In this document: piece after piece, positions 34,262 through 54,467 of the stretch
How positions within the stretch are numbered: position 1 is the stretch's first letter
Layout of the letters: each line of letters opens with the position of its first letter
Source: Mollicutes bacterium LVI A0039
GTDB taxonomy: Bacteria; Bacillota_I; Bacilli_A; UBA3375
Length of the DNA: 64,000 bases
NCBI GenBank assembly: GCA_033103385.1
Contig: CP136953.1
Span: 911,839-975,838 of the forward strand
Direction of reading: 5' to 3'
Translations under genes and position numbers: made by a program
The notes under the pieces: generated by a model
The model's input: only the letters and a program-made list of their open reading frames with translations
The model's database searches: none
What the model was told of the DNA's origin: nothing

Positions 34262-35488
34262 TTAAGACTGGTTATTGGTGTCATCAAAACTGATGCTTAA
34301 TCCTTCTGTATCTATATTGTCTACATTATTTATAAATACCGGAACTAATGCTCCGTCAAATAAGCCACTATGCTCCGCACCAAATGGACGATTGTCATAT
34401 TGTTGATTTGGATACCTAGTGCTTGGCGTTAACTTGAAGAAACTATTTGATATTTTAATATTTGATATCAAGTTCGATTCTAAAGCTGAGAAGTACAGAC
34501 AGTTTTCACCTTCCATACTTATATTTGAAAATAGTACATTCGAAATTTTACTCAATGAACTTAAACCTGGTGTTCGAGGATAACTGGTTATTGCGATTGG
34601 CTCTCCTTTTCCCCACCATATGTCATTAAATTTTCTGGTTTTTATAATCAAATTTGAACATACCAAATCACTTACATTTCCACCGTCACGGACTTGAATA
34701 GATATCCCACGGTTGGAATCATGAATGATTGAGTTACTAAATGTGATGTTTGAGAAATCTCCAAAACTTTCAGTACCTATTTTGAATCCAGCGCTTGTTG
34801 ATTTTAAAATACAGTTATTTACTGTAATGTTTTTAGTAGGTCCATAATCCTTATAGTACTTAGTGTTTTTCAAGACAATACAGTCATCAGCACTGGTGAT
34901 AAAACAATCAGAGATAATAACATCTTGACAATGATCGGGGTCAATTCCATCACAATTTGGCATCATTAAGTCCTGGTTGATTTTAAGTCTAGAAAATAAT
35001 ACTTGTTGACAACCGACTGGATGAATTGTCCAATAGCAACCATTTTCGATTGTTATATCAGTTATTCTTAGGTTAGTTACATTTTCAAAAAATAGTTGGG
35101 TAATTCGGGGATATTTTTCTAATTTGTAAATGTATTTAGTTTGGGAGTTAACAAAAGATAATCCATTTCCATCGATTGTACCAGAACCGGAAATGGTAAT
35201 ATTCTGACCGTGGTAAGCGGCAATTATCGTATACATCGGCTCGCCTGAGTATGCTTCTTCTGTTGTCAACTGTTGATAGTCTTCATACTTATCACTACCT
35301 AAAAGTCTACAGTTACCTTCTAAGACATAATTTATATCACTTTTCAAAATCAGATTAGCAACCTTAAAGGTATATCCGGTCGGAAAAACAAATGTCTCAC
35401 CAACATTTGCATCATTGATTGCCTTTTGGATTGCTTGTGTATCATTTGTGACTCCGTCACCAACTGCTCCATATTCAAAAATATTCAT
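34262..35488 (-). CDS. GH28 family glycoside hydrolase (exo-polygalacturonase / rhamnogalacturonan hydrolase-like right-handed beta-helix), cytoplasmic
   Basis: 'FEYGAVGDGVTNDTQAIQKAI' N-terminal motif. 'NCDGIDP', 'ADDCIVLK', 'SAGFKIGTES' and 'RGISIQ' correspond to the GH28 NTDG / DD / GHG / RIK motifs. Confidence 0.75.
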   Translation of the reverse strand: MNIFEYGAVGDGVTNDTQAIQKAINDANVGETFVFPTGYTFKVANLILKSDINYVLEGNCRLLGSDKYEDYQQLTTEEAYSGEPMYTIIAAYHGQNITISGSGTIDGNGLSFVNSQTKYIYKLEKYPRITQLFFENVTNLRITDITIENGCYWTIHPVGCQQVLFSRLKINQDLMMPNCDGIDPDHCQDVIISDCFITSADDCIVLKNTKYYKDYGPTKNITVNNCILKSTSAGFKIGTESFGDFSNITFSNSIIHDSNRGISIQVRDGGNVSDLVCSNLIIKTRKFNDIWWGKGEPIAITSYPRTPGLSSLSKISNVLFSNISMEGENCLYFSALESNLISNIKISNSFFKLTPSTRYPNQQYDNRPFGAEHSGLFDGALVPVFINNVDNIDTEGLSISFDDTNNQS

Positions 35489-35490
35489 AA

Positions 35491-36129: not shown

Positions 36130-36130
36130 G

Positions 36131-37219
36131 TTATATGTGATTAAGCGCTTCTAACATAGCTATTGCAGCTAACGATTGCCCATAAGCCATCGGTGCAGTT
36201 ATTATGTTGATATAGTGCTCTTCACCCTCTCCCATCGCTGTTCCTGCCGATACATTTTCAACAACTCCATTGTCATTAATATTGCTCATGATGGCTTCGA
36301 TCGTTCTTAATAAATCAGCAGTATGTTTCGTGTCAATAAATCCTAAACGAATTCCTTTTAAGATTCCGGCACATATTGCAGAACTTCCAGATACTTCAGC
36401 ATAAGAATTCGGATTATCTAATACCGTAGTCCAAAGACCACTTTCCGTTTGTAGTGATAACAGTCGCTCTACTTGATTTTTATACACTTCAGCAATAAAT
36501 CGATATGTAGCTGTATGACTATTGCTTTGCTCTTGTTCTAGATAATCAATCATCCCGAGTGTAAACCAACCGTTTCCACGACACCAATGAACACCTCCAA
36601 AGTTATGCTCACCATTAAAATTGTAACCATGATAGAATAGCTTACTTTCCTTGCAGTATAATAATTTAATGTGTTCTAAAACTTGGAAAGTTGCCTCTTC
36701 ATGCATTTCTTGATTATCGAGGTTGATTGCCATTTGATTAAGAAATAATACCGTCATAAAGATTGTATCAATCCACACTTCTCCATCGTTTAACCAGACT
36801 CCAGTCCCATCAATATTAGAAGTAACATGCTGAATTGCACCTTCCTTAGTCCGGTTTAAATCGTTCATCACCCAATCTACCCACTCATCACATAAGTCTT
36901 TGTATTGTGCGTAATTTTTCGATAATGTTAGCATTGGCGCTGTTGTATTAACATTCTTCACAGGAGTGGCTTCACTAAGGCGCTCTTTTGTCCATTGTAA
37001 AATAACATCCTCATATTTCGATGCTACTTCTGAATCGTATTTGTGTAAACCGTACAGTCCTACTCCCTGTGTCCAGTCCCAAAAACCAAATCCGAAATCT
37101 CTTGGGAACTTACCAATTTTCTGATCTGCTTCTGTTGATTTAGTTTCTGTATGATTATTTTCCAAATTTAGCAGTTGATTTATGACTACATCTACATTTT
37201 TTAAAATTTCTTCTCTCAT
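36131..37219 (-). CDS. GH105/GH88-family unsaturated glycuronyl hydrolase (YesR/YteR-like unsaturated rhamnogalacturonyl hydrolase favoured by context)
   Basis: About 360-aa (alpha/alpha)6-type protein with the 'FGFWDWTQGVGLYGL' region typical of GH88/105. Adjacent to the GH28 and YesL-like genes. Confidence 0.6.
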   Translation of the reverse strand: MREEILKNVDVVINQLLNLENNHTETKSTEADQKIGKFPRDFGFGFWDWTQGVGLYGLHKYDSEVASKYEDVILQWTKERLSEATPVKNVNTTAPMLTLSKNYAQYKDLCDEWVDWVMNDLNRTKEGAIQHVTSNIDGTGVWLNDGEVWIDTIFMTVLFLNQMAINLDNQEMHEEATFQVLEHIKLLYCKESKLFYHGYNFNGEHNFGGVHWCRGNGWFTLGMIDYLEQEQSNSHTATYRFIAEVYKNQVERLLSLQTESGLWTTVLDNPNSYAEVSGSSAICAGILKGIRLGFIDTKHTADLLRTIEAIMSNINDNGVVENVSAGTAMGEGEEHYINIITAPMAYGQSLAAIAMLEALNHI

Positions 37220-37227
37220 TTTAATCC

Positions 37228-39612
37228 TTACTTTAGATAGTCAGCCTCACGCATAACTTCTTTTCCATTTAATTTTACTAATGACTCTTCTATCGATAGT
37301 GAATTATCACCGAATCGAAGTTCATTGTTTGAAACATCAATTGCTGCGATTAGCTCACTAAACTCTTCTAAATCTTTATAATTACTCGCACGCTCTACTA
37401 GTACTGCCAACTTAATATCTTCACCATACATTGCTATCTCTTTATTAGTGTTTGGTCCAAACTTAGTTAATTCCGGATTAACGTTTGTACTGACTCCAAC
37501 GTACACATCGTCCTTGACTATTATATAATAATTATCTTTAATGATGATTTGATCAATTTTCCAATTTGGAAGATACATATGGACCATTTTAATTGAAGCA
37601 TTTGCTAAATCGTAATCTAAATATGTCATGTTTTGAACTTGCTCAATACGGGGCATAATTTGGTTTCCGGCCCAGTAAGATGGACGGTTTTCACCACTAG
37701 GAACTAACTCACCTGGATTATTAATCCATAGTTGTGTATTATCCGACTTTAATGATATATTGAATAAGTGTTGTTGATGTCCGCGTGAACCGGCTTTATA
37801 GTTTACAACCGAACCAACAGCATAATCACTATTTTTAAACAAGTACGAATAAACACCATTAATTCCCTGCTTATATTCGATAGTTTTCGCTTCTAAGCCA
37901 TCGTAAGTAAAGTGCTGTGTTAGCATTGGTGGCTGGTAATCAGTTAATGCCATTAATGCTGTTGAGCGAGATGTTGTATTTATATATCCTTTACCCCATA
38001 ACATCCAAGTTATAAATGTTAACTCTCCAAATTCCATTGCCTTTAATTCTTTTTCATAACAACGCCCATAAGAGCTTGCCATCATATCACCATTAAAATT
38101 CAGTGCAATTATTTTTAATGTCAAATCCATAGCATCACTGGCAATCTGCTTGATTTCCGCATCTGGTGCAAGTTCAAATAAACTCAAGAAACCAATTATG
38201 TCAATCGGAATATATGTTGTCGAATTCCATTCAGCCAGTCCGTACTTATTAAAGATTTCAAACCATTCTACAATTCTATCCTTACCTATCTTGGAGTGGG
38301 TTACTCCAGTATTTCCTGATACGGTAAATACCTCATTAGGATATAAATCACCTGCAATATATTGGGCAATGTGGAATAATAGGGCATGGTTCTCACTAAA
38401 CCACCACATAACATCTGATCCTGGTTCATCAATCCAATATCTAAAATCAAGTATCGATTGTTTTAAACGATCATGCATTGGCGTTGGTAATAAGTGGCTA
38501 TATTTCTTTAAAATAATCATTAGAGGAACTATATAGAAATCAGCACAATCTCCCTTAGATTCCACAATTTCCAGCACTGTAAGCAGTCCGTTCTCCACCT
38601 CTTGGTTATACTCATTATTTAATGATAATAACACTAGTGATTTATTAACATTCACCTGACCATGTTTTGCAATATATTCTGCCGCAAACTTTTTACGCGC
38701 TTCTATTGTATCTAAGTCGACATTCGTTGTCGTAATCTTCGATATAAAGAAACGTTTGCTTACAACAATACCATCGATAATGGCCTGGATAGTAACGTAG
38801 GACATGAAATCTGAATCACCGCTTAGATCAATACTTTTTGTCTGTTGATCGACTAGCTTCCAATCTGCACTTCCACATGTATCACGATAAATGTCAAACC
38901 CTTCACTGTAACTAAAATAAAGTTGCTGATCAATTGAATCTAAATGAGTATTATACTTAATGATGTCTGACTTATTTGCGTCTTGCTCGAAGTATATTGC
39001 ATCAATATAATCGACAACTTGATCGTATTTTTCCTGGTCGATATTCGTATCAACATAATACTCTAAATTGATATCTGTGTTTAGAGTTAGTTGATAATAG
39101 TAAAATACATCACGTTCAGCAATCTCAAGTGCGTATATAATCACCTCATTATCACCCGCTTGTAACTCCAAACTGATTGAAGTACTTGAGTTGATGTTTC
39201 TTGTAAAAGGTGCATATTCAACTTGCACGCTACCATTAACCCAAATAATTACTTTACCACATGTATCAAGAGTAAAGTCTACGGATTGAGCTAATGGTGA
39301 AACAATCGTCACTTTGGAATACACTTCTAACTTATGAGGAGTGTTAATAAAATTCGAAAATTCTACCTTACTATTTTCAAATGGACTATATAAATAATTG
39401 AATTTAATATCTTGAGGATACGCTATACATTCATCCTTAAAATCATTTATAAAATCTTTACGCACTGGATATACAATTTGTTTATACCCTTCCTCTAAAT
39501 TTACTGGTGCATCAAACGTTTCGTCTTGGTGCTGTTTGTAATTAGTCTTAACAACATCACTATGCGCTACATGATTGATGCTTTGACCTTTGTTGATGTT
39601 ATACTTAAGCAT
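37228..39612 (-). CDS. Large uncharacterised glycan-active protein, paralog A (about 794 aa). Predicted N-terminal beta-sandwich, central (alpha/alpha)-toroid, C-terminal beta domain
   Basis: Paralogous to the N-terminal 750 aa of the 1,052-aa ORF (for example 'WWFSENHALLFHIAQYIAGD' vs 'MWYFSENHGLNFHTAQFMAGD'; 'AEWNSTTYIPIDI' in both). Start refined to the MLKYNINKGQ ATG (GAGGAG RBS), which overlaps the GH38 stop by 8 nt. No motif of a known GH/PL family recognised. Confidence 0.6.
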   Translation of the reverse strand: MLKYNINKGQSINHVAHSDVVKTNYKQHQDETFDAPVNLEEGYKQIVYPVRKDFINDFKDECIAYPQDIKFNYLYSPFENSKVEFSNFINTPHKLEVYSKVTIVSPLAQSVDFTLDTCGKVIIWVNGSVQVEYAPFTRNINSSTSISLELQAGDNEVIIYALEIAERDVFYYYQLTLNTDINLEYYVDTNIDQEKYDQVVDYIDAIYFEQDANKSDIIKYNTHLDSIDQQLYFSYSEGFDIYRDTCGSADWKLVDQQTKSIDLSGDSDFMSYVTIQAIIDGIVVSKRFFISKITTTNVDLDTIEARKKFAAEYIAKHGQVNVNKSLVLLSLNNEYNQEVENGLLTVLEIVESKGDCADFYIVPLMIILKKYSHLLPTPMHDRLKQSILDFRYWIDEPGSDVMWWFSENHALLFHIAQYIAGDLYPNEVFTVSGNTGVTHSKIGKDRIVEWFEIFNKYGLAEWNSTTYIPIDIIGFLSLFELAPDAEIKQIASDAMDLTLKIIALNFNGDMMASSYGRCYEKELKAMEFGELTFITWMLWGKGYINTTSRSTALMALTDYQPPMLTQHFTYDGLEAKTIEYKQGINGVYSYLFKNSDYAVGSVVNYKAGSRGHQQHLFNISLKSDNTQLWINNPGELVPSGENRPSYWAGNQIMPRIEQVQNMTYLDYDLANASIKMVHMYLPNWKIDQIIIKDNYYIIVKDDVYVGVSTNVNPELTKFGPNTNKEIAMYGEDIKLAVLVERASNYKDLEEFSELIAAIDVSNNELRFGDNSLSIEESLVKLNGKEVMREADYLK

Positions 39613-42151
39613 TTTTCTCCTCATCACTATTTGGCTTAATATAAAATGTGCTACACGTTTTAGCAAATAGTTTTATTTGCTCAGATGATATTACTTCTCC
39701 TAAGCAATTTGTCTGAGCAACTATTGTCCAACCTGCAAATGCATCTTTAGCTAATAATTGTTCGGCTCCTCCATTAGTCAATCTAATTAAATATCCTTCT
39801 TCAAAAGATTCAATATTCGACATTGGATATGGTGTTTCAAGATTGATACTGGACTTGTCAATTAAGTCTAGATCACGTAAATCAAATAATTTATTATCTA
39901 AACGGTTGATGAACTTATCTACTAATTGTTTTTGGAAGTAATATGGGGCAGTAGTATGGGCATCAATCAATTGATTTATAGCAACTTCATCTAGCTTTGC
40001 TGCGATGTTAATTGTAAACCTAAATTTTTGAACCCCTAAATACTCTGCCTTTGGTGTTGCAATCATTTTGTGACCAGGACGTTGCGTATCTCCACTAGCA
40101 CGTCCGGGACGACTCAATAAATCACCTTTACCAAATTCACTTGTTGTTGCAAATAAAGTAATTATAAATTCTGAATCATTTACTTGATACTCCTTTGATC
40201 CATAACTTTGAATTGCATATGCATAGTCTTCATTTTGCTTTGCAACAATATTATCAAAAACTTTATTATCCAAATTATCTTCAACGTATCCTCTTTGCTC
40301 AAAGTTAGATATTACTAATTCATGATCTTGGGCAATGTGACTTGTAAATGGTACTGACTGATAATGATTTGGTGTATAGATTCCCGTATCAAAACTAACA
40401 CGTAAACGGTGCGATAAACTTTGGTTGTCAACTTCAATAGCAAAGTCAATTTGTCCATCATTAGTTACATCGAATCTAATTATAACTTTATTGTCAGTGA
40501 ATTTTTGCTTCTTAACTCTTTGTTCTAAGTCACTTGGTAGAGCAAGCGTTAATTCTGCCAGACCATAACCATGACTACCATTACTATACAAATTGCATTT
40601 AGTAACATCAAATATCAATTCCTCATCACCTCTAAGTGGTGAGTAATCATATGTATCTCCATCATTACCGCAGTCATACAATCTAATCCAGTTTGGAATA
40701 AACTTATCGCCGATTGTCATACTAATTTGGTTGTTATCGGCCGCTATTTTAAATTTAGGAGTTTCTAGAGCTGAAACCTTGATAAATTCTTTATAAGGAG
40801 CATCATTAGAACCGATAGTTATAATGTCAAAGTTCATTGGTGATAATTGTTCTTCAATTTTTACATCAAATATATAGTGATATCCTTGCTCTGAAAAATC
40901 AGATACCTTTGATCTATTAACGATACGGTATTTAACGTCTAAACGGATATTTTGACTATAACTTAATACCTTGATATTTTGGTTCGGAACAGTCGCTTTT
41001 GATTGTGGATTAAAGACAATCAATTTCTCTTCAGTTAACTTTAATTGCTCATGAAGACGGTATGCAATCATGTTTTCAATACCATCAACTACTTCTCTTA
41101 CTTCCTTGAATCTGAAAATAATATCTTCATATACTTCATCTGTTACACAACCACCCATTGAATCGTGTGCCTGGTTTTCAAACAGCTTCTTCAAACACCA
41201 TTTGATTAACTCCGTCTCGATTACAATTCCATTTTGCTTCGCAATTGCAATCATTGGGTTAGTTATCTTATAGATTCTATTTTCTAATTCAAAATTCAAT
41301 TGTTTAATATCGTAACGACTTGAACCGATACTACGGTGAACACGATCGTAGCTACCAATTCTTAAGTCGGACTGCAGTTCTTTATAATCCTTATCTGTTA
41401 ACAGGTTAAAAACCTTATCTAAGTCGCTATTAACTAAGTTGTAACTGGCTTCTTCAGAATTCAGTTGATTAATAATTTCGCTATGCTTTGTGTTAATTTC
41501 TGTTTGATCTCCACCACACAAACATACAAAATTTTGACTATCAGTATACTTTTTAATCGTATCAATATATTTAGTTAGCTTTTCACCTTTATCTAATTCT
41601 ACTGCCCCTAATTCTCCATATCCCTTGTATAGGTGGATTGTTTTAACTACTTCTTCATTTAGAGCCTTCCATTTAAAGTATGCACCCGTCTCATGAATAT
41701 CGTAGTCAACACCACGACGAATTACAGCTTTATCAATTCCACAACTCTTTAGTATTGAAGGCATTTGAATATTAAATCCGAAAGTATCAGGCAAATATCC
41801 AATTTCAAAATCACTACCTAAATCTCGTGATATTTCCAGTCCCACTTTTAAATTCTGAATTATCGATTCTGCTCCAACATAAAGACAGTCCGTTTGTGTA
41901 TACCATGGTCCAACAAAAAGCTGCTTATTTGCGATTAAATTCTTAACTCTTTGTTCATAGCTAGGTACAAATTTAAGGAAATCTTCGATTATTGATGATT
42001 GTGCATCTAAAATATATGTTTCTTCTGGATTACGTTCAAGCGTTTCAACTACTCTTTTAAAGGTTTCTGTAAGTAAAACATATGAGTCTCTTGTTGAAAA
42101 GTACCACTCTCGGTCCCAATGTGTATGTCCTATTAAATGTATATTATTCAT
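39605..42151 (-). CDS. GH38 alpha-mannosidase
   Basis: 'NIHLIGHTHWDREWYF' is the GH38 N-terminal metal-binding motif. About 850 aa. Start refined to the MNNIHL ATG (GGAGAG RBS), overlapping the upstream stop (ATGAATAA). Confidence 0.85.
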   Translation of the reverse strand: MNNIHLIGHTHWDREWYFSTRDSYVLLTETFKRVVETLERNPEETYILDAQSSIIEDFLKFVPSYEQRVKNLIANKQLFVGPWYTQTDCLYVGAESIIQNLKVGLEISRDLGSDFEIGYLPDTFGFNIQMPSILKSCGIDKAVIRRGVDYDIHETGAYFKWKALNEEVVKTIHLYKGYGELGAVELDKGEKLTKYIDTIKKYTDSQNFVCLCGGDQTEINTKHSEIINQLNSEEASYNLVNSDLDKVFNLLTDKDYKELQSDLRIGSYDRVHRSIGSSRYDIKQLNFELENRIYKITNPMIAIAKQNGIVIETELIKWCLKKLFENQAHDSMGGCVTDEVYEDIIFRFKEVREVVDGIENMIAYRLHEQLKLTEEKLIVFNPQSKATVPNQNIKVLSYSQNIRLDVKYRIVNRSKVSDFSEQGYHYIFDVKIEEQLSPMNFDIITIGSNDAPYKEFIKVSALETPKFKIAADNNQISMTIGDKFIPNWIRLYDCGNDGDTYDYSPLRGDEELIFDVTKCNLYSNGSHGYGLAELTLALPSDLEQRVKKQKFTDNKVIIRFDVTNDGQIDFAIEVDNQSLSHRLRVSFDTGIYTPNHYQSVPFTSHIAQDHELVISNFEQRGYVEDNLDNKVFDNIVAKQNEDYAYAIQSYGSKEYQVNDSEFIITLFATTSEFGKGDLLSRPGRASGDTQRPGHKMIATPKAEYLGVQKFRFTINIAAKLDEVAINQLIDAHTTAPYYFQKQLVDKFINRLDNKLFDLRDLDLIDKSSINLETPYPMSNIESFEEGYLIRLTNGGAEQLLAKDAFAGWTIVAQTNCLGEVISSEQIKLFAKTCSTFYIKPNSDEEKNA

Positions 42152-45100
42152 TTTCTCTCCAATATGCAACGGTTGAACCCAATAAGTTATTTTCATTAGC
42201 AAAACTACTGGCTTTTACGTTTGATTTAGTATCGTGATAGGGCAATTTTTCATAATAACGATTTAAGCTATCCTTGATTCTATTCATAAACTTTTGATTT
42301 TTGGAAATGGCGCCACCAATTATAATTAATTCTGGATCAACAATATATTGTAAATTGATGATTTGCATCGCAATGATATCTGTTTCCTTTTGCTTTAATG
42401 CTTCAAATTTCGGTTCTTCGCTATCAAAAACATATTCAGCATCAGGAACATTTGGATCTATCTTTTTGGCCTCATGGATGAAATTTGTCATCCCTGTAAC
42501 CGAACCGAATAGATTATACGGCTTCTCATCGCCCAATTGATAATTAAATAGTGGGAAACCAAGTTCTCCGGCAACTAGGTTTGCACCTTTTAATAATTGG
42601 TCATTGATGATAACACCTCCGCCAACTCCACTTCCAATTACAATCGCAGCTAGTGAACTAACATTATTACCACCAAAGTAGTATTCTCCTAGTGCCGAAC
42701 AGTTTCCATCGTTTTCGATATAACATTTAACTCCTGTGATTGATTGTAAGTCACCGATGATATCTTTCCCAATAATATAACTTAAATAGCTCGAACCGAC
42801 AACTTTTCCACCTTTGTAAACCGATGGACAGGAAATGGCTAAGGCAGGAACAACATTTTGCTTATGTTGTTCATAGATACTTGCCATTAATTTTAATAAT
42901 TGATCATATGATTCTGGGCTGGTAACTTTACCATTATCAGACACTTGACCCGCTTTTGAGACTAAACCATATTTTAAGTTCGTTCCTCCGATATCAAACG
43001 CTAGAATTTTATTCATAATTTCCTCACCATTAATTTTTATTAATTGAACTTCAAATTCAATTTCTTCTCCATAAAATACAATTTCTCGATTGGTATTTGC
43101 ACCTGTAATTGTTTTATGGTATTTATTGTTTGTTTTTACTAATACTGTATACTCTCCATCTGAAATAGTAATCACTTCATTATCAAATTTTACATCTACT
43201 TTTGACATTGGAACATACATATGAACTTGTTTGATCCATGAATTATGTAATTGCCATTTAATATTAGCTGTGTTTTCTTCTTGAGTTACCAGTGGGAATA
43301 TTCCATTTCCAGACCAAAATGATGGACGTCCTTCACCAGATGGTAATAATTCACCCGGATGATTTAGCCAAATATGACATTCGTTAGGCATATTGATATG
43401 GAAGACATGTTGCTGAATTCCTCGTTCATTTGCCTTATAATTACATACACTTGCAATCGAAGCATTTGGATATTTGTAAATTTTCGTATTAACTTTTTTA
43501 TAACCTTCAAATTTTTCGATTAGTCCGAGCTTTTCCTGAAAATCATAATGGTAATCAGTAATCAAGTATAGACTGACTGCTCTAGAACTCCAGTTTATAT
43601 ATCCTTTGTTCCACATTATCCAAGAGATAAATGATAGTTCACCAAATTCAAAGGCTTTAAGTTCCGTCTCATAAACACGTCCAAATGATGATGCCATTGT
43701 TTTATTAGTTAGGTTATTAGCAATTGTCTCAAAACAATAATCAAGTGCCTTTGTAGCTAGAGATTTGATTTCCACATCAAAGTTTTGGTGATATAAAACA
43801 AATAAGGCATTTAAATCAATCGGAATATATGTTGTCGAGTTCCATTCTGCAAGACCATACTCAATAAAGTGATCGAACCAAGCCATTAATCGTTCTTTAG
43901 CCTCTGCGCGGTGCTCTTCACCGAACTTACCAGAATTACTGAACTTACTTGTCATAAATGTGTCACCTGCCATAAATTGCGCAGTGTGGAAGTTTAATCC
44001 ATGATTCTCACTAAAGTACCACATTGCATCTACTCCCGGCTCATTACACCAGTATCTAAAATCAAGGATTGCATCCTCTATTTGTTTCTTTAGACTGGAA
44101 TCAATGATATCTTTAAAGTCACGGTATAACTGAATTAGACCGATTACTTCAAAATCAGCACAGTCATCACGGTTATTGATAAATTGTAATTGTTCATCTA
44201 ACTTTTTCTGGTTCGCTGATGAAATCGAACCATTAATTGCCAGGTCACAATAAACACGCATAACTGTTGTACGACCATTCTCACTTATATACTTGCGAGC
44301 AAATGCCTTACGCTCTTCAATTTGATCAATTTCCGGATCGACCATTGTATATTTTGATAAATACAGTCGTCTTACCATAAACATGTCTTCTTTTTCAAAC
44401 TTAAATAACATAAATGATGTAAAGTCAGCAAGCGTACCAAAATCCACTTCAACCACATTGCTATCCTTTTTAAACAGAACATCGATCTTGTAATCAAGCG
44501 TACTTTGGATTGGGTTACATTCATCTTCTTTTTCAAGTGCATCATATGGTAATTCATTGTGTCTAATCGCTAAACTTAATGTTCTATCTCTAGTCATCAT
44601 TTGATTATCATATTTAATAACAGCTATCCCACTATTAATTGTTTCATCTTGAAAGTAAATTGAACTTAATAGCGATGAAACTTCATCATACTCTTGTAAA
44701 TCGCTAATATCGATCTCCGTTGTTAAATTAGTATCCGTAAGTAAGATTGTTTCAAATGAGAAGTTGATATCACGTTCAGCAATATCACGAATATGAATTT
44801 CCATTTTATTCTCACCTTTTTTTAATGGCAACTTTACTATTGTTGATTCCGGATGAATTCTAGTAAAAGGTGAGAAGCGCGAAACTTCTACATCATTTAA
44901 ATATACCGAGGAATCACCACATACACGTAATTCAATTTCTACTTCATGATCTGCTTCAGAAATAATAGTACAGTATCCACTTGATTCCATCATGTAAGGT
45001 TGTCCGAGGAATGTTGAGTAATCGACTTTATTACTTTCAAATGGTGTATAAACATATTTGGGCTCTAATCGATTTAAACTTGTATTTTTACTATATTCTT

Positions 45101-45266: not shown

Positions 45267-45355
45267 TTTATGGACCTCTTTTATTTTATTTGGAATATAC
45301 ATAATATATTATGATATAATTTATGTAAAATTCAGTTTATGAATTGGGAGATGAT

Positions 45356-46469: not shown

Positions 46470-47057
46470 TTATGCTCCCTGTAACTTATTAATGTACTTT
46501 GAAATAATTTTCTTCTGAATTATCATCAAAACTAGAATATATCCAGCTGGAATAAAGAATAGGTAATAATACGCACCATTAAAGAATGTTAAGACGATAA
46601 CTAATAGTACGATGTAACCTATAACTCCTAAAAGTAAACTACGAATCGCCATATTAAAGGCTAACATATATTTGTGCGTAGTTGTATATTCGTAATTTAA
46701 ATATATTATCCAGAATGAGATTTCAAACATAATTAAAAATGAATTTAGAGCAATCGATACAATTTGTAAAGTATCTTTAAGTGAAATTGAAATTAGCAAC
46801 AGGATTCCAACAAATATTAAGTGGAAAATGTTATTAGTAAGTATATCTATGAAGTTGTCTTTAAGCATCTTCAAGCCATTTACTATGGACCCTGAATCAT
46901 CTTGATTAAAATAGTTTTTATCTAACTCGTTTGTTAAAATCGAACCGATTGAAAACGCTAGCGTTCCAAGAGATACAACTGACACTAGAATTATAACTAA
47001 ATTTGTAATGATTAAATCAAAGACAAAGTTTCCTGCTGACTGAATTTCTTCTTTCAT
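46470..47057 (-). CDS. YesL-like (DUF624) small integral membrane protein
   Basis: About 195 aa with 4-6 TM. Typical accessory of CUT1 sugar ABC operons in Firmicutes (B. subtilis yes locus). Confidence 0.55.
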   Translation of the reverse strand: MKEEIQSAGNFVFDLIITNLVIILVSVVSLGTLAFSIGSILTNELDKNYFNQDDSGSIVNGLKMLKDNFIDILTNNIFHLIFVGILLLISISLKDTLQIVSIALNSFLIMFEISFWIIYLNYEYTTTHKYMLAFNMAIRSLLLGVIGYIVLLVIVLTFFNGAYYYLFFIPAGYILVLMIIQKKIISKYINKLQGA

Positions 47058-47059
47058 TT

Positions 47060-48226
47060 TTACCCTTTCATAATAAGTGGGTTACTGATATAAATGTATT
47101 CGCGATCACGCTTCGTGCTTGTACACAATGTTATAACTAGGTAACCATCAATTTTACTTTCGTCAATTTCGACGACAGTATCTGCTGTTACCTCAATACT
47201 TGTACATTTATAGCGTTCGTATTTATATAAGTAGACCGTTTCTTTTACGTTTTTAATAGCTATTTTATTATTATCAAAGCTAACTTCGATGTCGGTGTTA
47301 GAAATAGCATTATTTCCTGTAAGAGCTGCCTCTAAGATCCCCGAAGTTGATTTAAACCTCGAGGTAATTATATTCGTTGGAATATAAATTTGTTTACCTT
47401 CATCCTCAAAGTGAAAGTCACTTCCTCCAATTGCCGGAATATATTTCCCACTATTTAGGATATCTAACCACCACTCAAATGCAACACGATTGTGCATTCC
47501 CCATGGTCCATTCCAAATTTCAACTAAATCAGGTGTAAGTTCCATAATCGGAACCATCCAAGATCTCGATTTAGGTGAAAATGGGTGATTGGCGACAAAC
47601 GTCGCCCCATTTGATTGAGCTTCTCTAATTTTAGCTAACTCATCTTCATAAGTGACAACTCTACAGTTGCTAATTGCTTGCTTCTTACCTAATAAGTTAC
47701 AGTGACCAAATTTGTTGGTTAGTTCCATCCCCGGAATGATGATACTGTCCGTTTCTGGATGCTTTGCAAAATTGGCTGCATGTGAGTTGTGATCCGTTAG
47801 TGTGATAAAATCGAGGTTTGCTGCTTCCGCCATCTCTACTAGTTCACTGATAGTGTGACGTCCATCCCCACTTGAGTTAGTGTGAGCGTGAAAGTCACCA
47901 CGTAGAATTACTGGTTTTAAAATAGTGTTTGCCTCAAAATCAACTGTAACCTTTTGACTTCCGTCAATGATATAGATACAAATACTCAGTTCTTCTACTG
48001 TACCTGCTACTAGCGAGCTGAAATCAATAAGTTCTTCAAGATTCATTACATGATTCGTGTATACACACTCTTCTTCGTGCAAAATCTGAATATAAACATT
48101 GTTATCTGCTTTTAGATTTACTTGTATCATGTTGAACTTCTTAAAATTAATTGTCATGAACTCTGTCATTTTATTTGCATGTAATGAAAACTTGCTTAAC
48201 ATATTACTCCTTAACTCCTCCGACAT
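47060..48226 (-). CDS. PHP-domain (CehA/McbA-like) metal-dependent phosphoesterase
   Basis: 'LRGDFHAHTNSSGDGRHTISELVE...DFITLTDHNS' plus downstream 'ANHPF', 'GGSDFH' His/Asp ligand motifs of the PHP fold. Extra N- and C-terminal beta-rich regions. Confidence 0.7.
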   Translation of the reverse strand: MSEELRSNMLSKFSLHANKMTEFMTINFKKFNMIQVNLKADNNVYIQILHEEECVYTNHVMNLEELIDFSSLVAGTVEELSICIYIIDGSQKVTVDFEANTILKPVILRGDFHAHTNSSGDGRHTISELVEMAEAANLDFITLTDHNSHAANFAKHPETDSIIIPGMELTNKFGHCNLLGKKQAISNCRVVTYEDELAKIREAQSNGATFVANHPFSPKSRSWMVPIMELTPDLVEIWNGPWGMHNRVAFEWWLDILNSGKYIPAIGGSDFHFEDEGKQIYIPTNIITSRFKSTSGILEAALTGNNAISNTDIEVSFDNNKIAIKNVKETVYLYKYERYKCTSIEVTADTVVEIDESKIDGYLVITLCTSTKRDREYIYISNPLIMKG

Positions 48227-49052
48227 TCATACCACCAACAAATTGTTTTTGGAACATAAAGTATAGTATTACAATTGGTAAAATACCAATTACAATAACT
48301 GCCATTTCAAGGTTTGGATAAATCATGAATGTACTTTGTCCTCCACCTGTTGGTAATACTAATTCCTTAATTGCTTGTTGGATTAAATACTTATTTGGAT
48401 CTGTTAATAATAGAAGAGCACTTGAATACTCATTCCATCTTGTAACGATATCAAATAGCATAACAACTAGGAATCCATTTTTTGCTAAAGGCACGTATAT
48501 CTTATAGTATATCTTAAATTCTGATGCTCCGTCAATTCTTGCCGATTCTGCCAAAGAAAATGATATTGATTTGAAATAGTTTTCAAGTAAGAGAATTGAA
48601 AAACCACTTGCTAAACTTATTAAGATAATTGACCATAAATTATTAATCATTCCGAGGTTTTGGAACATTAAGAACCGCGGAATCATAATTGCTTCTGCTG
48701 GAACCATCATTGTAATCATAAAGAAGATGGCAATAAATTTCCCTCCAGGTAGTTTGGTTTGAATTAACCCATAACCTGCTAATGATACGATTAACATGTG
48801 AAGTAATGTACCAATACTCGTTACAAATAATGTATTTATAAGCGGTCTAATAATGTTTGCATCTTCAAACACTGCTTTGTATCCCTCTAATGAAAAGTCT
48901 GCTGGAATAAAATAGTTTGATGGTGACAACGATTCAGCATTCGACATGAAAGAGATTGAAATTGCGGTCCATACCGGCATTGCAATGAAGATGAATAAAC
49001 CGATCATTACGATTAAAATAAATACTTGTTCAAAATTTAATTTCTTTTTCAT
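48204..49052 (-). CDS. CUT1 carbohydrate ABC transporter permease
   Basis: 6 TM. EAA loop 'ESARIDGASEFKIYYKIYVPLAKNG'. Confidence 0.85.
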   Translation of the reverse strand: MKKKLNFEQVFILIVMIGLFIFIAMPVWTAISISFMSNAESLSPSNYFIPADFSLEGYKAVFEDANIIRPLINTLFVTSIGTLLHMLIVSLAGYGLIQTKLPGGKFIAIFFMITMMVPAEAIMIPRFLMFQNLGMINNLWSIILISLASGFSILLLENYFKSISFSLAESARIDGASEFKIYYKIYVPLAKNGFLVVMLFDIVTRWNEYSSALLLLTDPNKYLIQQAIKELVLPTGGGQSTFMIYPNLEMAVIVIGILPIVILYFMFQKQFVGGMNVGGVKE

Positions 49053-49053: not shown

Positions 49054-49941
49054 TTAATACCTTATAACCTTTCTCACAATTAACGATACAATCAAAGTTG
49101 TGAAGAATACAATTGTAGCTGATGCTACTGACATACCAATATCAAATTCTAAAATACCAACTTGATATGTATACACCATTAGTGTTCTTACATACTCTGC
49201 ATTGTTTGGTGTTGTTAATAAGAATGAAAGTGAGAATGTCTTGAATATTGACATTACTGCTAATAAAGTTACTGTTTTCATCATCGTACTAACACCAGGA
49301 ATTGTAATATATCTTACTTGTTGGAACCATGTTGCACCATCTATTTTTGCAGCCTCATATAATGATGGATCTATTGCTAATAACGCTGCAGAATACATGA
49401 TTACATAGTACCCGATTGTTCTCCAAATTTGAATAATAATAAATAGTGGTCGCGCCAATCCTGGAGCTGCCATTAAATTTTCCGGTATTGGCGTTAATCC
49501 TAAACTATATGCCAAATCACTAATAGGTCCACCTGCACCAAGTAAATTTGCAAAAATACCAACGATAATTACTGTTGATAGTAATTTTGGTAAATAAACT
49601 GTTGTATGTAATAAGTTCCTAGCTCTTTTAAAGATAGTTTCATTTAAAATTATTGCAATAAATAGTGGCAGGAAAACATCCGCCACTACTGTTATACTTG
49701 CAAATATTACTGTATTTATCATCGCCTCGTGGAACTTAGGGTCAGTAAGTACTTTTATGTAATTACTTAATCCGACAAATCCACTAGGACCTAATAAACC
49801 GTAGTCTTGAAAACTAAAAACTATTCCTTGAGCAAAAGGATACATAACAAAAATTAAAAAGAATAAGATAGCTGGTGTTAAAAATATATAATACATCATG
49901 TTATCTTTTATTTTAATACTTAAACTCTTTGTTTGCATCAT
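49054..49941 (-). CDS. CUT1 carbohydrate ABC transporter permease
   Basis: 6 TM. EAA loop 'EAAKIDGATWFQQVRYITIPGV'. Confidence 0.85.
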   Translation of the reverse strand: MMQTKSLSIKIKDNMMYYIFLTPAILFFLIFVMYPFAQGIVFSFQDYGLLGPSGFVGLSNYIKVLTDPKFHEAMINTVIFASITVVADVFLPLFIAIILNETIFKRARNLLHTTVYLPKLLSTVIIVGIFANLLGAGGPISDLAYSLGLTPIPENLMAAPGLARPLFIIIQIWRTIGYYVIMYSAALLAIDPSLYEAAKIDGATWFQQVRYITIPGVSTMMKTVTLLAVMSIFKTFSLSFLLTTPNNAEYVRTLMVYTYQVGILEFDIGMSVASATIVFFTTLIVSLIVRKVIRY

Positions 49942-49952
49942 TCCCCTTTATC

Positions 49953-51329
49953 TTAGAATTTATAAGTTACGTCATCATTTGAAAGAGCTGCAATTTCCTC
50001 TTGCATTGCTTTAGTTCCTTCTTCTCCACTGATTTTACCTTTAATTATTTGACTTGCATATTTAGCAACAATTTCATTAATTTTACCGTAATCTGCATTT
50101 TTAATTACTGGTACACCAGTTTCATCAACGTATTGACGAGCTACTAATTCATCAGCTTCATTTGGACTTTCAAATCCTTCAGGCATTTCCCATGTTTCGT
50201 TAACTGGGTTTGCTGCACCATGGTTTAAGTTGTGCTCTTCACCAACTGCTGTTAATTCAATACTTCCATCTGCTGTGATGTTATAATCGTGTCCTTCATA
50301 TCCGAACACAGTCGCCATACTTCCTTCATCTGAATATAACCATTCAAAGAACTTAATTGCTAATTCTGGACTATCTGCATTTGCAGGAATTGCCATAAGG
50401 CTTAAGTCTCCAATTGATAATGTACGAGATCCATCTGGTGCTAATGCTGCTGGTGCGGCAATTGTATCAAATGTATCTTGAGTGTTACTTGAATCATCTT
50501 GAACTTTATCGTCGAATTGGCCAATCCAATGCCACCAGTATCCAACAGAACCAGTTTTACCTGACATGAACTGATCTCTAAAGTCACTTGAACCATTTGT
50601 TTCAAAGTTTGGTTCTAAGTATCCAGCCATGTACATTTTATTCCACCATTCCCATGCTGCAGCAGCATCATCGCTTGCGTAAGGCACAGTATAAACTCCA
50701 TCTTCAACTTCAACTAGACCTTCGGTAATATTAAATGCACTCATCCAAGGTTGAATATAGTCAATTCCACGAAGCGTTACTCCAAAGGCATCTTTTTCCG
50801 ATTTACACTTTGCAAAATAAGCTTCCCACTCTTCTAATGTTGTTGGTGCTTCCATATTGAATTCTTTTAACCAATCATTACGTACTGCGGCTACTAATCC
50901 ACCTTCATATTTAGTTGGAAGTGCATATACACCACCATCTATTTCGATTGGATCTAAATATACTTCAGGATCTAAAATATCTGGGTTGCTTAATACATCT
51001 GAACTAGCAATTAAATCTGTTAAGTCCATTAAAGCACCTTGATTAACTAAATCATAGTAATTCTCTTGTTGTATATAGATTAAATCATATATTTCACCAC
51101 TTGCTAATGCGGCTGCAAGTTGCTTAACATAGTCATCTTTAGGAACATTTGTAGTTACATCTACCCCTAGTTGTTCAGATAGCATTTGGGGGAACATCGC
51201 TTGTTCATCTTCTTCTCCTCCGATTTCCCATCCAAAAATTTCAAGACTATCCGCTGTAGGTGATGTACTTCCACTACAACCTGATAGCATCGCCATAAAT
51301 ACTACAAGACTAATTAGTAATTTCTTCAT
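49953..51329 (-). CDS. Extracellular solute-binding lipoprotein of the CUT1 ABC transporter
   Basis: Lipoprotein signal 'MKKLLISLVVFMAMLSGCSGS' (lipobox LSGC). Size and composition of family-1 SBPs. Confidence 0.8.
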   Translation of the reverse strand: MKKLLISLVVFMAMLSGCSGSTSPTADSLEIFGWEIGGEEDEQAMFPQMLSEQLGVDVTTNVPKDDYVKQLAAALASGEIYDLIYIQQENYYDLVNQGALMDLTDLIASSDVLSNPDILDPEVYLDPIEIDGGVYALPTKYEGGLVAAVRNDWLKEFNMEAPTTLEEWEAYFAKCKSEKDAFGVTLRGIDYIQPWMSAFNITEGLVEVEDGVYTVPYASDDAAAAWEWWNKMYMAGYLEPNFETNGSSDFRDQFMSGKTGSVGYWWHWIGQFDDKVQDDSSNTQDTFDTIAAPAALAPDGSRTLSIGDLSLMAIPANADSPELAIKFFEWLYSDEGSMATVFGYEGHDYNITADGSIELTAVGEEHNLNHGAANPVNETWEMPEGFESPNEADELVARQYVDETGVPVIKNADYGKINEIVAKYASQIIKGKISGEEGTKAMQEEIAALSNDDVTYKF

Positions 51330-51540
51330 AAAAACTCCTTAATATTTTTTGCTTTTAAGAAAAACGACTTATCTGTGAACTCGCCCCTCTACAATCCTAG
51401 TATACAAGAAAATGATTACATGATGCGAGAACTTTTTATAAACGGAAAAAATTCCAAGATGAGAAAATTTAAGGTGGAATTTTTTCCGGAATTATCCAAT
51501 TTTGATTTGAAAATATCCGTAAAACTGGATTAGCAAAAGA

Positions 51541-51580
51541 AAAACCACCTCTATAAATACTAGAGGTGGTTCGCTTCTTT
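51541..51580 (-). terminator. Intrinsic terminator after the GH2 gene
   Basis: Perfect 10-bp stem ACCACCTCTA-TAAATAC-TAGAGGTGGT with a T-run on the minus strand. Confidence 0.75.
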
Positions 51581-54467
51581 AGATCCTTCTGATAGTTATT
51601 GTGTAAGACATATCTTCTTTACTGCTAACAACATATCCAGGTTTACACCAATTTTCCCAGCTATCATCACCACCAACACCAGATTGTTTGTGGTTTATTT
51701 TTAAATGTGGTGCACCTTCTACTAAATCGCTGTTATTACGTTTTTGTTCCAACTCACAATCATTATAATTTCTTAATGAGAATTCAAATTCATCTGGACT
51801 TTCAATAATAAATCCTTGATTATTATCATCTACTACTTTTAAGTAATTAACTCTTGTTCGGTTTCCACACTCTTGTGGGTACAGATATGATTTTAAATCA
51901 CTAATCTTATGCGTTGAGTATAGTTTTGCAAGTTCAGTATTACGGTCTTGGTACGATTCAATTTCACCAGCACCTAGATAGGTAAACTTGTTATATCTAC
52001 GGTTTAAATTTACGTCAAAACCAAAGTTTAACATGTTTGGCATATTTTCGAGACCAGTATAAGTCGTCGTCACGATGATTGAACCATCATGTTTTACCTC
52101 GTAGTTCATTGTCGTTTTATATTGATCATTGATTGGGTGAGTAAATTCTATTGTTACGTATAGAACTTGATTTTTATATTTATAAGACTTAATCTTTTTA
52201 CTACTATATTCAGTAATGATTTTCCAAATACTTAGTTCCCCAACTATTCCTGCTCCCATATCATTATTCGTTGGTGCTCGCCACAAGTTTGGCTTAGGAC
52301 TGTTTTCAATTGATTCTAGAAGCTCTTTTCCGTCATATTTAATTGAAATAAGATTATTATATTCTTTACAGAACATTATTGAGAATTGTTCTGAATGCAA
52401 TCCGAAGTTTTTATCCCCTTCCACATAGTGAACATTCGTACACACTTCATCATTTTGTCTTTCTTCATAGTTTACTTGACTAAATACTTTTAGAACTTCC
52501 CCGTTGTTACATACCTCATATAAAGTTACACCAGTTCGAGCATCTTTTGGCACTTCGTAAATTTGTTGGGCGCTTAATTGAATTGAAGTCGTGTCGATTA
52601 GTTGCTTAGAAAATTCAGTTTGGATGTATTTTTTGATAATCAAATTGTCAAAGTCCATAAACTGATTATTGTTTTTGACAATAAATTTATCGGCTTCCTC
52701 TTTAATTCTTATTGGCGAGAAAAGATTTGATACATAAAGTAATTTGTCTGTAATTTCACGGTCAGGCCCAACTAGTCCATCACAAATAAAATTATAGTCA
52801 GTCGGACATTCATCAAAATCTCCTCCGTAATTGAACTTACCACCTTGGAATATCGCTTGATCCATATATTCCCAAATAAAGCCACCATGGTATGACTCAT
52901 ATTTATCTTCTAAATCCAGATAGTCAATTAAATTTCCATTTGAATTCCCCATTGCGTGTGTATATTCACAAAGAATAAACGGTTTTTCAAAGCCATTATT
53001 AAAATAAGTTTCTATGTCTTCACTACGTGTATACATATGTGATTCAACATCTGAAGTTAATGGGTAGCTACGATCACGTGTTACTCCTTCATAATGGACT
53101 AGACGACTACTATCCGTGTTTTTAAAATAGTTATGCATTTCAAATAGAGTTCTTCCTCCATACGATTCGTTTCCTAGCGACCACATAATAACCGAGCTAC
53201 TGTTTTTATCACGATTATATAAGTTTTTTGCTCGCTTTAGCACATTGTCACGATAGTTTGAGTTATCATTTGGTAAAACCCCGCTTAGATCTCCTGATGA
53301 AAACTTTGCAGTCGACCATGTTCCGTGTGTTTCCAGATTAACTTCATTGATGACATAAAAACCTAGTTCATCACAAATATCATAAAAGATTGTATTATTT
53401 GGATAATGTGAACAGCGAATTGCATTAAAATTATGTTTCTTTAAAAGTTCTAAGTCTGTTCTGATTTGTTTATAACCGATTGCTCGTCCTAGATATGGAT
53501 CGAATTCATGTCGGTTCATTCCTTTAAAAACAATTCTTTGACCATTTAATGTTATCACCTTATCAACAATTTCGATGTGTCTAAAACCAATTCTCTTTGA
53601 AAATTTTTCCGTACCCGTATCAAAATTAAACGTATATAAATACGGTTCTTCGGCATTCCATAGTTTTACATTGTCCAGCCAAAAGTCAAATCCATCACTT
53701 GACACGCCTTCGAATATTAGCACATTGTTATGATCAAGTACTTCACATTTAATATCAAATGTCCCGTTTCTAACTATATCAATTTTAGTGTTAACCTTAT
53801 CATTACAAATTGAATAATTTATCTCAAAGTCAATTATGTGTTGACTAGTTATTTTCTTAAGCTTAACATCTCTAAATATACCACTAAAGCGCCAAAAGTC
53901 TTGATCTTCTAGCCAACTGCTTGCGGTAAATTTATAAACTTCTACACTAATTTGATTAATACCTAATTTTAAATATTGCTTTACTTGAAACTCGCTTGTA
54001 GTAAAAGTATCTGTCGAGTAGCCGACGTAACTACCATTTATCCAAAGGTTGAATCCACTTTCAACTCCTTCAAAGCATAAGATGAAGTCCGCAAAGTCAT
54101 TCAGGTCTGCAACATTTATAAATTTAGTATACTGTCCAACCGTATTAGTCTTAATCGGCGATGTACCAACTTGTACATCTTCAACACCATCCCAAGGATA
54201 TTGTACATTTACATATTGAACTTGACCATAACCAGATAATTCAATATGACTTGGAACTTGAATCACTCGACTAAATGTTTGCTTCGTCATAAAGTTTTCA
54301 TCTCGATCAAAAATATTATTGTAAAAATCAAAGTGCCAACTACCATTTAAATTGACTTCTAATTCACAATCGATTCCATGCGTATACTTGCTCGATCTTG
54401 GTTGATACTTGTTTATTTCATACATATTCGGGTTGCTAATTAAATCGATTAATTCATTTGTTTTCAT
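51579..54467 (-). CDS. GH2 beta-galactosidase (LacZ-type), cytoplasmic
   Basis: 'WRFSGIFRDVKL', acid/base 'NESYGG' (LacZ NESGHG) and nucleophile 'LCEYTHAMGNSNG' (LacZ ICEYAHAMGNS). 962 aa. Confidence 0.88.
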   Translation of the reverse strand: MKTNELIDLISNPNMYEINKYQPRSSKYTHGIDCELEVNLNGSWHFDFYNNIFDRDENFMTKQTFSRVIQVPSHIELSGYGQVQYVNVQYPWDGVEDVQVGTSPIKTNTVGQYTKFINVADLNDFADFILCFEGVESGFNLWINGSYVGYSTDTFTTSEFQVKQYLKLGINQISVEVYKFTASSWLEDQDFWRFSGIFRDVKLKKITSQHIIDFEINYSICNDKVNTKIDIVRNGTFDIKCEVLDHNNVLIFEGVSSDGFDFWLDNVKLWNAEEPYLYTFNFDTGTEKFSKRIGFRHIEIVDKVITLNGQRIVFKGMNRHEFDPYLGRAIGYKQIRTDLELLKKHNFNAIRCSHYPNNTIFYDICDELGFYVINEVNLETHGTWSTAKFSSGDLSGVLPNDNSNYRDNVLKRAKNLYNRDKNSSSVIMWSLGNESYGGRTLFEMHNYFKNTDSSRLVHYEGVTRDRSYPLTSDVESHMYTRSEDIETYFNNGFEKPFILCEYTHAMGNSNGNLIDYLDLEDKYESYHGGFIWEYMDQAIFQGGKFNYGGDFDECPTDYNFICDGLVGPDREITDKLLYVSNLFSPIRIKEEADKFIVKNNNQFMDFDNLIIKKYIQTEFSKQLIDTTSIQLSAQQIYEVPKDARTGVTLYEVCNNGEVLKVFSQVNYEERQNDEVCTNVHYVEGDKNFGLHSEQFSIMFCKEYNNLISIKYDGKELLESIENSPKPNLWRAPTNNDMGAGIVGELSIWKIITEYSSKKIKSYKYKNQVLYVTIEFTHPINDQYKTTMNYEVKHDGSIIVTTTYTGLENMPNMLNFGFDVNLNRRYNKFTYLGAGEIESYQDRNTELAKLYSTHKISDLKSYLYPQECGNRTRVNYLKVVDDNNQGFIIESPDEFEFSLRNYNDCELEQKRNNSDLVEGAPHLKINHKQSGVGGDDSWENWCKPGYVVSSKEDMSYTITIRRI

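Follow-up and report, generated by a model that had tools for sequence, protein, structure and literature searches.

Here we describe FAM, a large, widespread and uncharacterised enzyme family, and propose, with about even confidence, that it is a new family of cytoplasmic oligosaccharide lyases that feed enzymes of glycoside hydrolase (GH) family 105. The name is ours and denotes the family of two paralogous proteins, A and B, encoded by Mollicutes bacterium LVI A0039, a shrimp-gut symbiont that has been cultured and belongs to the Candidatus Bacilliplasma lineage (PMC11527720). The stretch of DNA analysed (hereafter the window) comprises 64,000 nucleotides of this genome, and the proteins of the region are, residue for residue, WOO88150-WOO88163. 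Both paralogs belong to a tight minus-strand operon in the order B::ROK (B joined in frame to a ROK sugar-kinase domain), GH38, A, GH105, DUF6198 and GH28, within what the gene content supports as a composite cytoplasmic glycan-utilisation locus. Taken together, our data depict FAM as a cytoplasmic enzyme whose substrate is an imported oligosaccharide and which works closely with GH105 and the unsaturated-uronate pathway. An earlier note on this DNA, made from its letters alone, had singled out the two proteins of about 790 residues as paralogs without a known family, had predicted for them a β-domain, a helical toroid and a second β-domain, and had taken the GH105 neighbour as a hint that they could be lyases.

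The paralogy is clear, with 36% identity between A and B over ~790 aa (E 2e-168), and neither protein is matched by any Pfam or NCBIfam model. Searches of PDB sequences with A, as a single sequence or as a 40-sequence profile, returned no relatives, only chance-level antibody matches (E~0.5), so that both paralogs indeed lack a Pfam, NCBIfam or PDB-sequence assignment. The existing models for toroid-lyase families (Pfam Hepar_II_III, Lyase_8 and alginate-lyase) gave no match in A, B or 40 aligned members, and no recognisable catalytic domain of GH65, GH78, GH94 or GH95 was found in FAM. When Pfam was consulted at E values up to 10 with single sequences and the 40 members, weak PA14 or GH2_N matches appeared in 19 of the 40, confined to the N-terminal region. 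Literature searches, which did not cover CAZy or dbCAN, found no published characterisation of the family. Its members are numerous: a word-indexed search yielded 345 relatives of ~800-840 aa, all labelled 'hypothetical protein', from Bacillaceae, Enterococcaceae, lactobacilli, Clostridia and Sphaerochaeta, and an exhaustive profile search over 1.84 billion representatives placed at least 2,135 clusters at 50% identity in FAM at E ≤ 1e-3 (746 at E ≤ 1e-30). An N-terminal hydrophobic segment is absent in 230 of 232 members examined. Consistent with a cytoplasmic location, a hydrophobicity check found no signal peptide on any enzyme of the window locus and a lipobox on the substrate-binding protein (SBP) only.

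The predicted architecture was recovered in an AlphaFold model of A built with a 40-sequence alignment (pLDDT 90.2, pTM 0.88), which comprises a PA14-like β-region (residues ~1-295), a helical toroid (~303-556) and a β-sandwich (~575-781). Structural matches of the model include the polysaccharide lyase (PL) family 8 entries 1f1s and 1hm2 and the PL40 entry 9vtk. The toroid-then-sandwich core is shared with PL35 (8khv, 9o3q), PL15 Atu3025 (3a0o), PL17 (Alg17c, AlgL17), PL21 heparinase II, PL12 heparinase III, PL39 and PL8; among these, the exo-heparinase Atu3025 is itself cytoplasmic and exo-acting on imported oligosaccharides. We class FAM as a new family within this toroid/β-sandwich lyase fold class, to which PL23 also belongs, an assignment made without comparison to the CAZy or dbCAN families.

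Conservation across the 232 members, whose identity to A falls as low as 19%, is concentrated on E407-N408-H409 (0.99 each), Y467 (0.98), H678 (0.96) and H615 (0.89), with R517, Y519, R643, a D355-C356-x-D358 motif, E396, D400 and E461 among the further most conserved positions. B keeps all of these, including the equivalents of N408, H409, Y467 and H615, as well as every FAM position conserved at ≥97%. We regard N408, H409, Y467 and H615 as putative catalytic residues of A, because they seem to fit the Asn/His-Tyr-His pattern of the toroid lyases, in which an Asn or His is followed by a Tyr 53-57 residues on and by a His 130-166 beyond the Tyr (PMC12088678 Table 4). The same table lists N192/Y246/H401 for PL35, N240/Y294/H424 for PL12, N201/Y258/H413 for PL17, H202/Y257/H406 for PL21, N186-H187/Y239/H405 for PL39, and both H311/Y365/H531 and N336-H337/Y390/H555 for PL15. 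In FAM, Y467 lies 59 residues beyond N408-H409 and H615 a further 148 on, so that what the two groups have in common, as a sequence pattern and not a superposition, is an Asn-His, a Tyr ~55-60 residues later and a sandwich His ~150 beyond it.

The second-best structural match of the model, dermatan-sulfate epimerase 1 (6hzn; 378 aligned residues at 5% sequence identity), has the same fold class and similar catalytic residues, and raises the alternative that FAM is a uronate C5-epimerase or isomerase that would use the lyase-type residues to abstract and re-add the C5 proton and would leave the chain uncut. We consider this quite unlikely. The epimerase is a eukaryotic Golgi enzyme of biosynthesis, whereas FAM has a bacterial, catabolic context, and a cytoplasmic setting in importer operons with GH105, KduI and KduD calls for bond cleavage. 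An epimerase would also leave minimal loci, such as that of Microvirga described below, without an enzyme that makes the GH105 substrate.

This genomic context was surveyed by clustering the ORFs of 80 further FAM loci in GTDB species genomes of Bacillota, Spirochaetota, Fusobacteriota and Alphaproteobacteria. ATP-binding cassette (ABC) permeases occur in 62 of the 80 and SBPs in 54, one GH105 subfamily in 35-37, AraC regulators in 31 and LacI regulators in 23; then come an AP_endonuc_2 TIM barrel (17), ROK (15), a KduD-like short-chain dehydrogenase/reductase (SDR; 14), KduI (12), GH51 (12), GH28 (11), GH2 (10), GH31 (8) and GH38 (6). GH38, in ~6 of 80 loci, was rejected as a universal partner of FAM. 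The FAM gene often lies between SBP and permease genes, and a minimal operon in Microvirga reads LacI< GH105> KduI> FAM> SBP> permease> permease> ATPase, followed by an SDR on either strand. Closest to the window are two fully syntenic loci (L001 and L003) that hold the two nearest relatives of A (56-59% identity) in the order AP_endonuc_2, SBP, permease, permease, PHP, a 198-aa protein, a 131-aa protein, RpiR (divergent), ROK (290 aa), GH38, FAM, GH105, DUF6198 and GH28; orthologues across these loci share from ~38% to 86% identity, most of them 52-66%.

The link between FAM and GH105 extends from synteny to fusion. On family assignment, we take the GH105 enzyme of the window to be an unsaturated uronyl hydrolase. 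It shares 49% identity with the GH105 linked to FAM in Neobacillus (L013), and with all 36 matches in a single cluster it belongs to the GH105 subfamily that accompanies FAM across phyla. Among PDB entries, 3qwt, 3pmm and 4xuv resemble it more than the YteR-like 4wu0 does. In two separate clusters, P0132 (L089:8001-11519) and P0201 (L090:4426-7920), FAM carries a C-terminal GH105 domain in proteins of 1,164-1,172 aa, both on real contigs. One of these fusions adjoins AraC, GH28 and GH38, as in Sphaerochaeta, and the quartet of FAM, GH105, GH28 and GH38 recurs in Mollicutes and Spirochaetes; the L090 fusion sits in a mini-locus with an MFS_2 (GPH) transporter and a YdjC deacetylase.

Two further families were noticed in these neighbourhoods. 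A homologue of the AP_endonuc_2 protein, which in the window belongs to the same syntenic block, adjoins KduI and/or the KduD-like SDR in some FAM loci and in several Bacillaceae lies between the two (for example, L009:21164-22006); it may represent an undescribed step of unsaturated-uronate metabolism. A family of ~553 aa (c13) lies near FAM or GH105 in 12 of the 80 loci, in Clostridia, Spirochaetes and some Bacillaceae (for example, L032:3803-5464 and L035:8948-10591). It has no Pfam or PDB match, and an hhalign comparison with FAM was not significant (probability 0.2), aligning only a suggestive AE[WR].S..Y motif.

On the lyase reading, a CUT1-type ABC importer would take up an acidic oligosaccharide, probably plant-derived, from which FAM, as an exo-type β-eliminase, would split off a sugar carried on O4 of a uronic acid. 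The carboxylate would be neutralised by N408 and H409, with Y467 and H615 as base and acid; a neutral sugar would be freed, and the non-reducing end thus created would bear a 4,5-unsaturated uronate for the co-encoded GH105 to hydrolyse. GH38, GH28 and GH2 would trim α-mannosyl, α-uronosyl and β-galactosyl residues, respectively, and the ROK kinase would phosphorylate a released hexose. The fold and the conserved N-H/Y/H residues, with GH105/KduI/KduD synteny and the FAM-GH105 fusions as indirect support, make the lyase hint of the earlier note the best-supported reading.

Several points weigh against a lyase. The match of the catalytic residues is one of spacing along the sequence only, and the strictly conserved D355, D358, E396, D400, E407 and E461 would equally suit a glycoside hydrolase. 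GH105 is found within 10 kb in only ~45-60% of FAM loci, and in Lactobacillus loci from the bee gut the partner of FAM is a PL4-like protein, with no GH105 within 10 kb. In L052, L068 and L069, the Lactobacillus and Companilactobacillus loci in question (two of them from bee-gut Lactobacillus), ROK and a cytoplasmic PL4-like protein with PL4 domains II and III and a weak domain I (for example, L068:13386-15074) come after FAM, and GPH transporters flank it. The main rival, which we judge less probable than a lyase yet a serious contender, is that FAM is a new glycoside hydrolase family: an exo-glycosidase, for example α-L-rhamnosidase-like, that would act on the neutral sugar exposed after GH105 has removed the unsaturated uronate, in alternation with GH28, GH38 and GH2. 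The acidic residues would serve such an enzyme well; the toroid-lyase fold, the N-H/Y/H residues and the fusions to GH105 argue for elimination.

The lyase reading would align FAM loci with established pathways in which a lyase is followed by an unsaturated uronyl hydrolase, as in the Bacillus subtilis yes/yte rhamnogalacturonan system with the GH105 enzymes YesR and YteR, the Dickeya Ogl-KduI-KduD route, or the Bacteroides PL27 and fungal PL42 Rha-GlcA lyases that precede GH105. The cytoplasmic pathways of this kind and the FAM loci follow the same logic of importer, elimination at a 4-linked uronate, GH105 and KduI/KduD, with GH28, GH2 and GH51 as accessory enzymes in both. Pfam scans of the window locus found no PL4, PL9, PL11, PL22, PL26, PL27 or PL42 protein, and FAM occupies the slot that a known lyase holds elsewhere. 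Unlike those pathways, the window locus adds GH38 and ROK, which point to mannose, and the Bacillaceae loci add true iol genes. The resemblance to the yes locus that the earlier note had drawn holds for GH105 and the CUT1 importer and fails in two respects, as no PL11 (YesW/X) or other known PL was detected in the scanned ORFs and the regulator is of the RpiR rather than the AraC type. Xanthan side-chain modules, which combine PL8 xanthan lyase, GH88 and GH38 (PMC10881899, PMC12827396), likewise join a lyase-like enzyme with an unsaturated-uronate hydrolase and GH38; the window locus differs in having no PL8, GH5, GH9 or GH94, a hydrolase of the GH105 rather than the GH88 type, and a GH28.

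A conservative reading of the substrate is a pectic, rhamnogalacturonan-I-like or arabinogalactan-type acidic oligosaccharide, because the neighbours of FAM include GH105, GH28, GH2, GH51 and the PL4-like protein. In the window, GH38 and ROK add an α-mannoside, as in xanthan-type side chains, with PL8 and the backbone-cleaving enzymes missing. A more speculative and rather improbable proposal is that loci with FAM and GH105 form a hitherto unrecognised bacterial pathway for eating the head groups of plant, perhaps fungal, glycosyl-inositol-phosphoceramides (GIPCs). Plant and fungal phospholipases set Man-GlcA-inositol(-P) and GlcN(Ac)-GlcA-inositol-P glycans free from plant GIPC (PMC11496612), and the substrate may then be Man- or GlcN(Ac)-α1,4-GlcA-α1,2-inositol(-P). 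FAM would be a heparinase-III-like lyase that cuts Hex/HexNAc-α1,4-GlcA, GH105 would free the unsaturated uronate and myo-inositol, GH38 with GH28 would provide a hydrolytic route for Man-GlcA-Ins, the PHP metallohydrolase would remove phosphate and ROK would phosphorylate the released hexose. This proposal draws on inositol catabolism genes: IolG, IolE, IolD, IolC and IolA lie beside, and mostly directly after, the FAM-GH105 operon in at least 5 Bacillaceae genera (loci L008-L014, L017, L020 and L037; for example, IolG at L008:16553-17587 and IolD at L011:20182-22101). Every one of these genes exceeds its NCBIfam equivalog cutoff. Gene order varies from genus to genus, with GH51 and KduI set among the iol genes in L008-L010, and several loci also have UxuA, which belongs to the glucuronate route, close by. 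Further pointers are the mini-locus with the YdjC deacetylase and the recurring quartet of FAM, GH105, GH28 and GH38. Only Bacillaceae show the iol linkage; the window itself carries neither iol nor kdu genes. If the GIPC proposal is right, it would reveal the route by which bacteria exploit plant GIPC sphingolipids, a class of lipid abundant in plant membranes.

The range of FAM covers gut and soil Bacillota, Spirochaetota, Fusobacteriota and Alphaproteobacteria, where it is central in conserved sugar-import operons and has no Pfam model, solved structure or functional name. If it is a lyase, it would found a new PL family and supply the missing enzyme that makes the substrate of a whole GH105 subfamily; many genomes from gut and rhizosphere could then be better annotated, and work on acidic oligosaccharides would gain a new tool enzyme. 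The fusions of FAM with GH105 and with ROK also hint at the order of the pathway steps. FAM directly precedes ROK in other phyla too (L033, L052, L068 and L069), which suggests that FAM action releases a hexose for the kinase.

B runs into ROK with no stop codon of its own, and the two form a 1,052-aa ORF (junction ...AAT GGT GAG GAA ATT ATG AAT AAA...). At its end, ...IKINGEE of B aligns with the last strand of A, ...VKLNGKEVMREADYLK*, and ~43 residues of the C-terminal tail are missing before that point in B. The start Met of ROK is preserved with a Shine-Dalgarno-like GGTGAGG 5 nt upstream, which makes independent initiation plausible; read in the +1 frame, the ROK ATG is part of an ATGA stop/start overlap. 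We rejected an artefact of sequencing or assembly as the cause of the fusion, because an independent run (SRR12349260) yields the same ORF on a contig that matches at 99.987% identity over 15,159 bp. L001 and L003 lack paralog B and encode ROK as a gene of its own. The ROK part of the window protein is 61-62% identical to these standalone 290-aa kinases and has the same start Met and end, a divergence on a par with that of the other locus orthologues. Its 48 nearest homologues are all standalone as well (257-311 aa), and the fusion is therefore local. The earlier note had said that a ROK normally encoded separately in orthologues would make the fusion a local artefact, and this holds in part: the single protein it described is real and in frame, and it is confined to this strain lineage. 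We read it as the result of a strain-lineage-specific event that placed B directly upstream of ROK without a stop codon; ROK keeps its own ribosome-binding site and may also be made separately.

The nearest relatives of B are A and the orthologues of A (37-38% identity), so B is either a divergent lineage-specific duplicate or a copy lost from L001 and L003. Its absence from the closest syntenic loci, its missing tail and stop codon, and the Shine-Dalgarno sequence and ATG retained by ROK would all suit a decaying by-product, in which B is a redundant duplicate turning pseudogene and only an internally initiated ROK is functional. We think this unlikely, since B is a 750-codon open frame that has kept all positions conserved at ≥97% while at 37% identity to A, which implies long purifying selection, and since the lost tail is the most variable part of FAM. 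Moreover, adjacent or tandem-fused FAM pairs recur elsewhere, in L043, L045, L082 and L086 and in the FAM-FAM proteins P0129 and P0137 of ~1,530 aa.

The earlier note had also regarded the ROK domain as a possible degenerate sensor or pseudo-kinase joined to a glycan-active domain. The CxCGxxGCxE zinc motif is indeed absent, the ExGH motif reads ELGF, with Phe in place of His, and only ~7 residues link the two domains in frame. The domain nevertheless keeps DIGGTN, its DxGGT ATP motif, and ENDGN with the catalytic Asp, and it has no DNA-binding domain. The ROKs of the window, L001 and L003 all read GELGF without the Cys motif; among the 48 nearest homologues, CxCGxxGC occurs in none, NDxN in all, and Y, F or L follows ExG, with the DxGxT motif and catalytic Asp kept in 47-48. 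Best PDB matches are Fusobacterium nucleatum NanK (5nck), Streptococcus pneumoniae 2gup and Listeria 4htl. FnNanK is a ROK kinase without a zinc site that keeps its catalytic features, and 4htl has no zinc-binding cysteines and carries Tyr at the ExGH histidine position (PMC5458393). These zinc-less kinases resemble the window domain in length (~290 aa), DxGxT, catalytic Asp and lack of CxCGxxGCxE, and 4htl also in the aromatic residue that replaces the ExGH His; the window kinase differs in following a FAM domain of 750 residues within one protein. What had looked 'non-canonical' is thus the hallmark of a normal kinase subgroup, and a missing ExGH or zinc site is no argument against kinase activity. 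We read ROK as a normal zinc-less sugar kinase, and with the fusion limited to one strain lineage we hold a pseudo-kinase to be highly improbable. The kinase scores far below every NCBIfam equivalog cutoff, so that these models assign it no particular sugar.

The genes of the locus are listed in Table 1. ORFs across the region are long and intact under the standard bacterial code (table 11) and match the NCBI proteins exactly, for which reason a code-4 (Mollicutes) reading was rejected. ORF, Pfam and NCBIfam scans placed every gene where the earlier note had put it, and the overlapping stop and start codons it reported are real, with 8 nt each at ROK/GH38 and GH38/A. The motifs it quoted are also present (WWFSENHALLFH and AEWNSTTYIP in A; DIGGTN, ENDGNCSALGE and AGELGF in ROK); the 'YesL-like' label of the 195-aa membrane protein found no backing, as neither this protein nor the 131-aa protein beside it has a family match in Pfam or NCBIfam scans. 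A second minus-strand operon runs from 51329 down to 46073 with the SBP, two permeases, the PHP metallohydrolase and the 195-aa and 131-aa proteins, and a terminator-like hairpin (51542-51572) lies beside the GH2 unit. Because a promoter scan of the locus did no better than on shuffled sequence, we drew the operon boundaries from gene spacing and two terminator-like hairpins. The GH28 protein, which scores 245 bits with a PglB-like NCBIfam model (below cutoff), may be exo-galacturonidase- or rhamnogalacturonidase-like. GH38, whose start was inferred from L001, matches PDB entries 2wyh and 3lvt and reaches 445 bits with an MngB-like NCBIfam model (below cutoff). The DUF6198 protein has a weak match to the NCBIfam SPE_1075 family, and the AP_endonuc_2 protein has no NCBIfam assignment.

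Table 1. Genes and domains of the glycan-utilisation locus, by position in the window
Feature	Position	Strand	Evidence or remark
GH28, 408 aa	34262-35488	-	Pfam GH28 5.5e-25; PDB 3jur; no signal peptide
DUF6198 / YczE-like membrane protein, 212 aa	35491-36129	-	PF19700 on L001/L003 orthologue
GH105-type hydrolase	36131-37219	-	Pfam Glyco_hydro_88 1.2e-61; PDB GH105 3qwt, 3pmm, 4xuv
Paralog A, 794 aa, WOO88153.1 'hypothetical protein'	37228-39612	-	FAM member
GH38 α-mannosidase-family enzyme, 848 aa from MNNIHLIGHTHWDREWYF, cytoplasmic	39605-42151	-	Pfam GH38N and Alpha-mann_mid
Paralog B::ROK	42144-45266	-	Single in-frame ORF
ROK sugar-kinase domain, 290 aa	42144-43016	-	Pfam ROK 5.2e-29
FAM domain of paralog B	43017-45266	-	36-37% identity to A
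RpiR-type regulator (HTH_6), divergent	45344-46063	+	Same position in L001/L003
131-aa protein	46073-46468	-	Kept in L001/L003
195-aa multi-pass membrane protein	46470-47057	-	Kept in L001/L003
PHP-domain CehA/McbA-family metallohydrolase, 388 aa	47060-48226	-	Kept in L001/L003
CUT1 ABC permease	48204-49052	-	CUT1-type importer
CUT1 ABC permease	49054-49941	-	CUT1-type importer
SBP lipoprotein, lipobox LSGC	49953-51329	-	CUT1-type importer
GH2 LacZ-type β-galactosidase	51579-54467	-	Own transcription unit
AP_endonuc_2 (xylose-isomerase-like TIM barrel) protein	54968-55774	-	Same syntenic block, L001/L003

Outside the locus, three minus-strand ORFs of 420, 457 and 678 aa (20219-21481, 29741-31114 and 61330-63366, respectively) have no Pfam match at E ≤ 1e-4. 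Two adjacent GH3 genes (21638-26860, minus strand) form a separate cluster ~8 kb from the locus, and one of their products, of 937 aa, has the permuted order GH3_C, Fn3-like and GH3 N-terminal domain. A 619-aa ORF (27098-29486, plus strand) combines an AraC-type helix-turn-helix (residues 5-81) with GH39 (123-582); an ORF of 185 aa without a family match lies ahead of it and overlaps it. Either a regulator that senses through a glycosidase-like domain or a three-part gene disrupted by frameshifting could explain this arrangement. Finally, a giant minus-strand ORF of 4,578 aa (4137-17873) carries ~20 Bact_surface_Ig-like repeats and is likely to encode a surface adhesin.

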